A stretch of DNA of 20,803 bases from a virus (taxonomy: Duplodnaviria; Heunggongvirae; Uroviricota; Caudoviricetes), in IMG/VR virus record IMGVR_UViG_2690316131_000021. One strand, 5' to 3'. Shown piece by piece: positions 3,355 through 3,812 of this stretch. The notes under the pieces are model-generated. The model had not been told where the DNA came from. It saw only the letters and a list, made by a program, of their open reading frames with translations, and made no database searches. Position 1 is the first letter of the stretch, and every line of letters starts with the position of its first letter. Both the position numbers and the translations under genes were made by a program.

Positions 3355-3514
3355 AATGACCTCGCGTTTCGATAATTTTTACCTCGCCACCGTCAGGTGC
3401 TAATCATCGTGGTGGCGAACTGTGCGGGGTTAGCACTACCGGTCGAAACATCCGGCGAGCCTTTCGGCTCCCCCACACAGCCCGCCATAAATCGCGAATG
3501 TGACTGTGCTTAGC

Positions 3515-3539
3515 GCATAAAAAAACCGCCAGCGCGGTT
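3515..3539 (-). terminator. Rho-independent terminator between ninE and the ORF6N gene
   Basis: - strand reads AACCGC-gctg-GCGGTT followed by TTTTTTTATG. Confidence 0.55.
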
Positions 3540-3629
3540 ATGCACCGTTTCGATATCCGGGGTGCTAATCCCGACGCCAGATTTTGCTGGCGCGTGAGGA
3601 ATATAGCCCCGAATAAATCATCGCGTCAA

Positions 3630-3812
3630 TCACCTTGTTTTCCTCGCACGATGTCTTAGCCACCGGATATCCCACAGGTGAGCCGTGTAGTTGAAGGTTT
3701 TTACGTCAGATTCTTTTGGGATTGGCTTGCGTTTATTTCTGGAGCGTTTCGTTGGAAGGTATTTGCAGTTTTCGCAGATGATGTCGGTGATACTTCTTCG
3801 CTGTCGCCTCAT
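3630..3812 (-). CDS. ninE: NinE
   Basis: [51 protein letters not shown]... matches lambda NinE as recalled; ATGA overlap with the methyltransferase stop. Confidence 0.8.

Follow-up and report, generated by a model that had tools for sequence, protein, structure and literature searches.

A phage P1 immI-type antisense RNA cassette very probably controls an antirepressor-like gene in the nin region of a lambdoid prophage

The virus record IMGVR_UViG_2690316131_000021 is a stretch of DNA of 20,803 nucleotides (nt), a lambdoid prophage whose nin region lies on the minus strand; the whole stretch is called the window below, and all positions refer to it. Between ninE (3902..3630, Pfam NinE) and ninG (1880..1275, Pfam NinG), both on the minus strand, lie two further minus-strand genes: the first (2677..3354) encodes a 225-aa protein with ORF6N and P22_AR_C domains, and the second (1880..2608) a 242-aa protein whose N-terminus is Rha-like and which carries a KilAC (ANT) domain. 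An earlier, sequence-only reading had noticed repeated boxes in the region 3355..3630 upstream of the ORF6N gene and proposed that they are repeated protein-binding sites or leftover insertion joints. We analyzed this region and conclude, with a probability of about 90%, that it is an antisense RNA cassette of the phage P1 immI type controlling the antirepressor-like ORF6N gene. The boxes are very probably the docking sites of a P1 c4-type antisense RNA encoded between them. This kind of system has been known since 1990, and the arrangement in the window is already explained by it.

The box CGTTTCGATA occurs in exact copies at 3365-3374 and 3546-3555, and the box GGTGCTAATC at 3396-3405 and 3561-3570. 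Between the two direct copies of the GGTGCTAATC box, positions 3430-3436 (TTAGCAC) form an inverted 7-mer copy of it, and positions 3443-3449 (TCGAAAC) are the complement of the CGTTTCGATA box core, a second inverted copy that had been overlooked. An 8-bp inverted repeat, TCGCCACC/GGTGGCGA, occupies 3384-3391 and 3411-3418. Both repeated 10-mers, the inverted copy near 3430 and the 8-bp repeat were thus present where the sequence-only reading had placed them, as were its two terminators, which are minus-strand hairpins at 3539..3524 (with a T run to 3519) and 2660..2639. A single 10-mer found twice in 20.8 kb is unremarkable, since 33-34 of 100 shuffles gave at least two matches with at most one mismatch. 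Two distinct 10-mers, each repeated directly and exactly inside 276 nt, arose in 5 of 5000 dinucleotide shuffles, and two 10-mer repeats that each have an inverted 7-mer between their copies arose in none of 5000 dinucleotide shuffles of the 276-nt region. The joint arrangement of the boxes is far beyond chance, unlike each 10-mer alone. A search for the boxes elsewhere in the prophage, which that reading had recommended, found the composite motif GTTTCGA-N(3-33)-GTGCTAA at these three places only in the whole window (two on the plus strand and one on the minus strand), against a chance expectation of 0.01.

A scan with Rfam models identified three RNA families in the region: c4-a1b1 (RF03163) at 3606..3554 with 50.6 bits (gathering 46.7), isrK (RF01394) at 3593..3519 with 76.6 bits (gathering 50), and C4 (RF01695) at 3492..3408 with 75.1 bits (gathering 45), the last being a full-length match from model position 1 to 87. 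The three matches lie in series on one strand, the minus strand, in the same order as in P1. Sub-gathering matches to STnc370, CRISPR-DR65 and rsmX between 2500 and 3800 (E = 0.1-0.8) were rejected as the terminator hairpin and chance.

At the upstream end of the region, a consensus scan predicted a sigma-70-like promoter (3600..3629, minus strand; 10 of 12 matches) with the -35 hexamer TTGACG (3629..3624) starting directly after the ninE stop codon, an 18-nt spacer, and the -10 hexamer TATATT (3605..3600). Both hexamers are invariant in 28 related sequences, and one cassette copy in a second genomic context (copy a of contig L029) has its own TTGACA at the same spacing to the -10 hexamer. The position of the promoter agrees with those of the P1 promoter P1c4/P51b and of PisrK in Gifsy-1 of Salmonella Typhimurium. 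By comparison with these systems, we infer that transcription starts at G3593; when the Gifsy-1 sequence was numbered from the equivalent base, all published mutant names were reproduced. The predicted IsrK-like leader RNA of about 75 nt (3519..3593, minus strand, by Rfam) is composed of hairpin 1 (3593..3574, minus strand), hairpin 2 with a site termed a1 in its loop, a linker with a site termed b1, and an intrinsic terminator, which an independent terminator scan also found (stem 3539..3524, U run to 3519, minus strand). The predicted leader fold keeps a1 in a loop. Site a1 (RNA 5'-UUAGCAC-3', 3562..3568, minus strand) is the core of the GGTGCTAATC box at 3561-3570, and site b1 (RNA 5'-UCGAAACG-3', 3546..3553, minus strand) is the core of the CGTTTCGATA box at 3546-3555.

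Downstream of the leader terminator, the C4-type antisense RNA gene (3408..3492, minus strand, by Rfam) has a closing stem P1 of 17 bp and two hairpins, P2 (GAGCC-GAAA-GGCUC, with a GAAA tetraloop) and P3. Its minimum-free-energy fold (-49.1 kcal/mol, z = -6.35) equals the architecture of the family model and leaves unpaired two segments, b' (RNA 5'-GUUUCGA-3', 3443..3449, minus strand) in the loop of P3 and a' (RNA 5'-GUGCUAA-3', 3430..3436, minus strand) in the single-stranded joint that leads from P3 to the 3' strand of stem P1. These are the two inverted copies of the boxes. The C4 ends AUGG...GCCACC are conserved in common with phage P1, and the mature RNA probably extends from about 3486 to 3411, as modelled on the 77-nt C4 of that phage. 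A 15-nt direct repeat with 80% identity (AGCCCGCCATAAATC / AGCCCCGAATAAATC) at 3479-3493 and 3605-3619 joins the promoter spacer to the stretch just 5' of and into C4, and may be due to chance.

The two remaining box copies lie between C4 and the ORF6N gene. Site a2 (RNA 5'-UUAGCAC-3', 3397..3403, minus strand), the core of the GGTGCTAATC box at 3396-3405, begins 7 nt past the C4 3' end, and site b2 (RNA 5'-UCGAAACG-3', 3365..3372, minus strand), the core of the CGTTTCGATA box at 3365-3374, ends 10 nt ahead of the AUG and 1 nt ahead of the Shine-Dalgarno sequence GAGG (3363..3360). Segments a' and b' are exact 7-nt complements of a1, b1, a2 and b2, all four sites, and the complementarity of the a1 region to 3425-3436 extends over 12 nt (92%). 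The 8-bp inverted repeat, which had been counted among the possible binding sites or joints, is an RNA hairpin that presents a2 in its loop (3384..3418, minus strand); it is present in the centroid fold. The bases of its 5' arm (3418..3411) double as the 3' strand of the C4 closing stem, so the a2 hairpin and that stem are mutually exclusive in the unprocessed transcript. In some C4 members, the 3' half of the closing stem was already noted to overlap a downstream hairpin (Weinberg et al., PMC2864571).

To compare related cassettes, we collected a first set of 80 viral contigs encoding relatives of the ORF6N protein, which gave 24 distinct leader regions (alignment A1), and an extended set of about 120 further contigs retrieved through the conserved first leader hairpin, about 200 cassettes overall. 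Seventy of the 77 unique cassettes were parsed, and the other seven were truncated, chimeric or slightly divergent. In the 24 distinct sequences, all 38 pairs (912 cells) were 100% paired, compared with 34-43% in slid controls. The 27 pairs of C4 were all 100% paired, seven of them with compensatory double changes. Leader hairpins 1 and 2 were likewise 100% paired, with one-sided changes only, and the a2-loop hairpin (3418..3384) was 100% paired with one compensated pair (AU 13, GC 8, GU 3). The base at alignment column 189 (G or A) co-varies with both its alternative partners. The leader terminator was left out of the formal pair count because its columns are out of register between types.

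The sites behaved differently from the stems: the promoter, hairpin 1 and the stems of C4 show conservation or compensatory changes, whereas the boxes are not conserved and are swapped as whole sets. We measured pairing per sequence through loop-versus-site duplex energies and longest-match searches; counting of a/b pairs on a MAFFT alignment was dropped, as gaps fell in different registers in the three copies, both at the single extra base of the UUAGGAAC type and where b sites shift. The a1/a'/a2 set is UUAGCAC/GUGCUAA/UUAGCAC in the window and UUGGCGU/ACGCCAA/UUGGCGU in Sakai Sp5 (L054). Further a types (site/loop) are UUUGCAC/GUGCAAA, UUGGAAC/GUUCCAA and UUAGGAAC/GUUCCUAA, the last with a one-base insertion in all three copies. 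The b sites likewise change together with the C4 loop, and G-U pairs are tolerated. In the first set, with five a types and seven b types, the cognate site was the best partner for a1 in 5/5, a2 in 5/5, b1 in 6/7 and b2 in 7/7 types, and equally good permutations numbered 1 of 120 and 2 of 5040. The extended set contained eight a types and 14 b types in 22 combinations; the cognate site was best in 8/8, 8/8, 14/14 and 12/14, respectively, and none of 20000 random assignments equalled that.

The geometry of the sites is kept across types, with a1 at +26, b1 at +40 to +43, and a2 6-7 nt past C4. The position of b2 depends on the type, ranging from 16 nt ahead of the AUG to an overlap with it, and in all types b2 adjoins or overlaps the Shine-Dalgarno sequence or the AUG. 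The a types and the b types reassort independently of each other, the b type of the window occurring with three different a types. Boxes differ even between loci whose downstream proteins are 75-100% identical, while their complementarity to the C4 loops is kept. Fixed positions, changing sequences and kept complementarity together indicate RNA-RNA pairing and not protein operators or joints. The earlier reading was right to treat the boxes as sites with a function and not as repeats due to chance, but it named the wrong partner: across relatives they track the C4 loops.

In contigs that carry two cassettes (L028, L029, L107 and L093), the addresses always differ in at least one box. Both boxes differ between the two cassettes of L028, L029 (at about 678 and about 2263) and L107, and the two cassettes of L093, at 3959 and 7221, share the a box and differ in the b box.

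To the observed family membership, structure, three-way complementarity with co-variation, geometry and module borders, we added promoter activity, processing, direction of regulation and the role of the protein by analogy with P1 and Gifsy-1, and propose the following mechanism. A constitutive sigma-70-type promoter (3629..3600) would start a transcript at about 3593. Most transcripts would end at 3539..3519 and give an IsrK-like RNA of about 75 nt with a1 in a hairpin loop and b1 in a single-stranded linker. Read-through transcripts would contain the c4-type RNA, which RNase P, by the P1 analogy, would trim to about 77 nt (about 3486..3411). The C4 RNA would expose a' (GUGCUAA) and b' (GUUUCGA), which would base-pair with the 5' leader of the ORF6N gene at a2 (3403..3397) and b2 (3372..3365). 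Translation of this gene would then be blocked because b2 abuts the Shine-Dalgarno sequence, within the ribosome footprint, and downstream transcription would perhaps be lost through Rho. The identical a1 and b1 sites, whether on the short RNA or in cis on the precursor, would compete for the C4 loops and so set or relieve repression. We hold the detailed direction of control to be reasonably probable, with distinctly less confidence than the identity of the cassette, because it rests on the experiments in P1 and Gifsy-1.

Several points weigh against this interpretation. The activities of the promoter and the terminator are consensus-level predictions, and each core duplex is short, at 7-8 bp and about -8 to -9 kcal/mol. 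At the Gifsy-1 locus, mutations of a1 in cis raise, rather than lower, basal expression, and a constitutively expressed orf45/STnc1160 segment strengthened IsrK toxicity; the authors favour a structural switch in cis with translational coupling via orf45 (PMC4825925). The results of the cis a1 mutants and of the orf45/STnc1160 segment indicate that a simple titration picture is incomplete, and a switch in cis may contribute. Finally, in one related contig (L111), a2 and b2 mismatch the C4 of their own cassette. In this cassette (start 924 of the reverse complement), a1 and a' (UUGGCGU/ACGCCAA) match, as do b1 and b', and a2 (UUGGAAC) and b2 (GUACGGAG) come from other address types; the 3' strand of the closing stem of its C4 is altered. 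The C4 RNA of L111 should not reach its own gene, and the cassette may be a natural derepressed recombinant or part of a decaying prophage.

Among other explanations, the one that survives best, although we consider it unlikely, is that the Gifsy-1 IsrK model applies unchanged: a long transcript inactive in cis through pairing of a1 with a' would be opened by IsrK in trans, the small open reading frame (ORF) that starts at the C4 AUG (orf45 in Gifsy-1) would be translated, and the antirepressor would be made by coupling, with no separate processed antisense repressor. At the Gifsy-1 locus this model is backed by native gels, compensatory mutants, 30S footprinting, and orf45 start and stop mutants (PMC4825925), and the a1:a' pairing that it needs is conserved in the window. 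However, the ORF from the AUG at the C4 5' end has only 31 codons here, with its stop 41 nt before the ORF6N AUG; in related cassettes it has 8, 14, 27, 31, 33 or more than 44 codons and is frame-shifted between types; and in L182 and L087 the C4 homologues start with AUUGGUGGGG and not AUGGUGGGG, so that the AUG taken as the orf45 start in Gifsy-1 is absent. For these reasons the orf45-coupling part of the model cannot hold in the window, and a small protein from the C4 5' AUG was rejected as a candidate on the same grounds. The model also leaves the co-variation of a2 and b2 and their placement at the ribosome-binding site unexplained, and the segment that it treats as a reading frame matches the C4 model with full structural co-variation, a stable STnc1160 RNA having been seen in Salmonella.

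Somewhat less likely still is that the C4-like RNA acts in the manner of the P4 CI RNA, by premature transcription termination instead of a ribosome block. Relatives of P4 CI and seqA are reportedly picked up by the Rfam profiles for C4 and isrK (PMC10111431), the Gifsy-1 authors themselves raised the P4 analogy (PMC4825925), and an intrinsic terminator follows just after a1 and b1. On the other hand, the terminator scan found no intrinsic terminator-like site between C4 and the gene, and the location of b2 at the Shine-Dalgarno sequence or AUG in every type is the placement of a translational block, which a terminator does not need. Termination of the P4 type and a translational block are not exclusive, as Rho could follow the block. 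That the boxes are operators for a DNA-binding protein or duplications left by the insertion of the gene is very improbable. In favour of this idea, operators typically form direct repeats close to promoters and gene starts, relative to lambda the module counts as an insertion, and its proteins carry DNA-binding-type domains. Against it, the box sequences are replaced wholesale while remaining complementary to two loops of an RNA of conserved fold, a protein site gives no reason for an inverted half-copy inside the C4 RNA, the a and b boxes reassort independently, and the borders of the module fall elsewhere.

These borders were determined by comparison with phage lambda. Using blastn, we found that window positions 3805..3625 correspond to lambda 42097-42277 (97%) and 1880..1105 to lambda 42432-43213 (91%), so that 1744 bp (1881..3624, minus strand) stand in place of the 154 bp of lambda (ninF) between ninE and ninG. 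The joints with lambda are at 3624/3625 and 1880/1881, and the boxes lie 50-260 bp inside the module. In L028 and L029, a second, window-type cassette is located upstream of ninB, and its homology begins at about 3613, between the -35 and -10 hexamers. From the lambda comparison and the context in L028 and L029, the joints fall elsewhere than at the boxes, which are therefore internal to the module. The extra cassette of L029 carries its own ORF6N gene. The claim that the ORF6N gene behaves as an autonomous insertion bracketed by terminators was right in that a self-contained module replaces ninF relative to lambda. Its upstream terminator does not bracket the module, because it lies downstream of the module's own promoter; it is the terminator or attenuator of the IsrK-like leader.

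The ORF6N gene product matches Pfam ORF6N (2.6e-20), Pfam P22_AR_C (1.3e-23) and the PHROG 377 anti-repressor Ant (5e-81). Its gene is followed by an intrinsic terminator with a 9-bp stem and then a U run (2639..2660, minus strand, by the terminator scan). The product of the second gene (PHROG 63) matches Pfam ANT (1e-32), and its Phage_pRha match has 27.1 bits, below the cut-off of 29.9; its stop codon overlaps the ninG start (ATGA). In phage phi24B, the ORF6N gene is named ant, and the gene for the Rha-like and KilAC protein is named roi. Public phage records for 1880..3354 disagree on which gene is "ant" and which is "roi", and label the two genes antirepressor, DNA-binding protein Roi, AntA/AntB or hypothetical. 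In the window no ORF separates b2 from the ORF6N gene, so a leader ORF of the P1 icd type is missing here. In contig L076, the cassette is separated from the ORF6N gene by a 63-aa ORF (2313..2504, plus strand) with an ATGA overlap, b2 covering the AUG of this ORF; it occupies the place of icd in P1, but was rejected as an Icd homologue, with no Pfam match and no BLASTP similarity to P1 Icd. The 22-aa "hypothetical protein" vb_24B_17 of phi24B corresponds to window 3564..3632 on the minus strand, that is, the first three ninF codons, the promoter and hairpin 1, and is almost certainly not a gene.

Also in the nin region, a Dam gene is located at 4336..3809 (minus strand, Pfam). Elsewhere in the window, the Rfam scan identified a full-length sok antitoxin RNA of the hok/sok-type toxin-antitoxin (455..629, minus strand, 118 bits) downstream of the Q region, an sRNA-Xcc1 match (17254..17337, plus strand, 78 bits, gathering 53) inside or at the start of the ORF 17252..18034, and a lambda cIII thermoregulator element (11650..11708, plus strand, 88.5 bits), confirming both the lambdoid early-left region and how the prophage is oriented.

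The cassette was found in 697 of 5426 complete E. coli genomes (13%), at up to four places per genome. Both motifs, C4 and c4-a1b1, were reported from Proteobacteria and phages by Weinberg et al. 2010 (PMC2864571), whose seed alignments already hold the homologous nin locus of O157 Sakai Sp5 and the Gifsy-1 locus. In the literature searched, we found no explicit statement that IsrK/orf45 is the P1 c4 system, a 2025 review listing IsrK and c4 separately (PMC12197685), and no catalogue of a/b address types or of their reassortment. In the literature on enterohaemorrhagic E. coli and Shiga toxin (Stx) phages, the RNA was not found in Tree et al. 2014 or Veses-Garcia et al. 2015, antisense is not mentioned in Fogg et al. 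2011, and the work on phi24B ant is silent on a cassette RNA. On these points our observations are modest additions to a known system and do not define a new kind of system.

At about even odds, in our view, the nin-region cassettes of lambdoid prophages form a combinatorial two-box address system that gives each co-resident prophage private RNA control of its antirepressor. The frequency of the cassette in E. coli genomes and the differing addresses of paired cassettes support this idea. If this is true, IsrK/orf45 of Gifsy-1 would be the P1 c4 system under another name, with IsrK as the competitor and orf45 as the C4 RNA, and the variant in the window, which has no coupled leader ORF, would show the RNA acting directly at the ribosome-binding site of the antirepressor. 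When ant of phi24B was knocked out, late-promoter activity fell, after induction with norfloxacin, to 27-56% of the wild-type level (PMC3064807), which fits a role of the gene, a predicted antirepressor here, in prophage derepression. Because loss of ant lowers the activity of this late, toxin-linked promoter (PMC3064807), the RNA switch would bear on the inducibility of Stx-phage-like prophages. For annotators and for researchers working on ant and roi, the cassette means that a c4-type RNA precedes the gene and is missing from the GenBank and RefSeq records.

The module can be compared with a moron. This concept, attributed to Juhala and colleagues in 2000, reportedly denotes an additional gene that brings its own promoter and terminator and sits between two genes that are neighbours in other lambdoid phages. 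The module is moron-like in having a promoter-like site, a gene and an intrinsic terminator between ninE and ninG, and unlike a moron in its elaborate RNA control region, in the second gene past the terminator, and in that ninF is replaced rather than added to. With phage P22, the gene in the window shares the C-terminal domain of Ant. The sar RNA of P22 is transcribed in cis from the opposite strand and is a true antisense RNA to the ant ribosome-binding site. In contrast, the predicted regulator in the window lies on the same strand, upstream of its target, and would pair through two short loops; our Rfam scan gave no sar-like match. As is proposed for the C4 RNA, sar of the P22 immI region is small and prevents an antirepressor from being translated (PMC12197685).

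The 1.1 kb around the cassette is 99.3-99.6% identical to Stx2 phages, for example vB_EcoP_24B (phi24B; 99.5%) and Min27, and Sakai Sp5/VT2-Sakai, phi24B and Min27 all have the same nin-region cassette. The Sp5 address differs from that of the window, with the a site UUGGCGU and the b site GAAACC (L054). In the deposited records and RefSeq, no RNA is annotated at the cassette, and a spurious 22-aa coding sequence or nothing is found there.

The isrK-orf45-anrP locus of Gifsy-1 in Salmonella Typhimurium (Hershko-Shalev et al. 2016, PMC4825925) belongs to the same cassette family. It shares the promoter hexamers and their spacing with the window, its downstream gene is of the ORF6N type, IsrK corresponds to the a1/b1 leader, and orf45/STnc1160 corresponds to the C4 segment. 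In that locus, PisrK drives transcription of anrP, whose mRNA is untranslated; IsrK in trans raises anrP translation more than 100-fold, and the IsrK a1 mutants G28A and G31A fail to do so (PMC4825925). We numbered the LT2 row of the seed alignment of PMC2864571 and found that G28 and G31 lie in a1, that the compensating changes C162U and C159U lie in a', and that A107 (the first orf45 AUG) coincides with the AUG at the 5' end of C4. From the location of these mutations in a1 and a', helix b-I of Gifsy-1 is the a1:a' pairing and "orf45" is the C4 gene; STnc1160, a stable processed RNA, has been detected at the C4 position in Salmonella (PMC4825925). Gifsy-1 differs from the window in its a and b specificities (its b loop is UCGGUGAU), in that the ORF from its C4 AUG runs into the start of the gene whereas that of the window ends 41 nt upstream, and in its upstream neighbour antQ. 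Cassettes of the L046 type, with an ORF of at least 44 codons from the C4 AUG, were also retrieved through an ORF6N-type gene. The Gifsy-1 paper does not name the P1 c4 system and compares its locus only with P4 (PMC4825925).

The reference system for the cassette is the immI region of phages P1 and P7. According to the P1 model (Citron and Schuster 1990, as recounted in supplement 1 of PMC2864571), a' and b' of c4 pair with a2 and b2 and thereby block ant, one of a2 and b2 overlaps the ribosome-binding site, and a1 and b1 may compete for c4. The P1 record NC_005856 annotates a1, b1, c4 (77 nt), a2, b2 and the icd start. In the same order as in the window, P1 has a promoter, two leader hairpins with a1 in the loop of the second, b1, a terminator-like hairpin, a C4 of about 77 nt, a2 and b2. 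The spacing is also similar: 15 nt from a1 to b1 in the window and 14 nt in P1, 31 and 29 nt from a2 to b2, and, for an 8-nt b2 site, 10 nt from the end of b2 to the AUG in both (the icd AUG in P1), with a2 a few nt past the C4 3' end in each. In P1 as in the window, the a and b sites are exact direct repeats, and a hairpin equivalent to that presenting a2 can be drawn, as judged by eye. P1 immI matches the same three Rfam models, c4-a1b1 with 51 bits and isrK with only 35 bits, below gathering. This isrK match of the immI leader (L082, 331..412) includes the terminator-like hairpin before c4, so P1 may also make a short IsrK-like leader RNA. In both phages, the downstream operon encodes a KilAC/ANT-domain protein, P1 Ant1 carrying the same ANT domain.

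The cassette also differs from that of P1, whose a and b sequences are UUUGACA and UGUUAGUG. The first regulated ORF is the ORF6N/P22_AR_C gene itself in the window and the small icd in P1, which must be translated for ant to be expressed; the icd leader ORF is a feature of the P1 operon and not of the C4 RNA family. The leader terminator of the window is a good intrinsic terminator, from which a discrete IsrK-like RNA is expected, whereas the P1 leader scores only 35 bits with the isrK model. A C1-type operator is not apparent in the window, and the cassette belongs to the nin region of a lambdoid prophage, whereas P1 is a plasmid prophage. Viewed in this way, the cassette unites P1 c4, Gifsy-1 IsrK and P4 CI/seqA, which the reviews that we searched still list separately.

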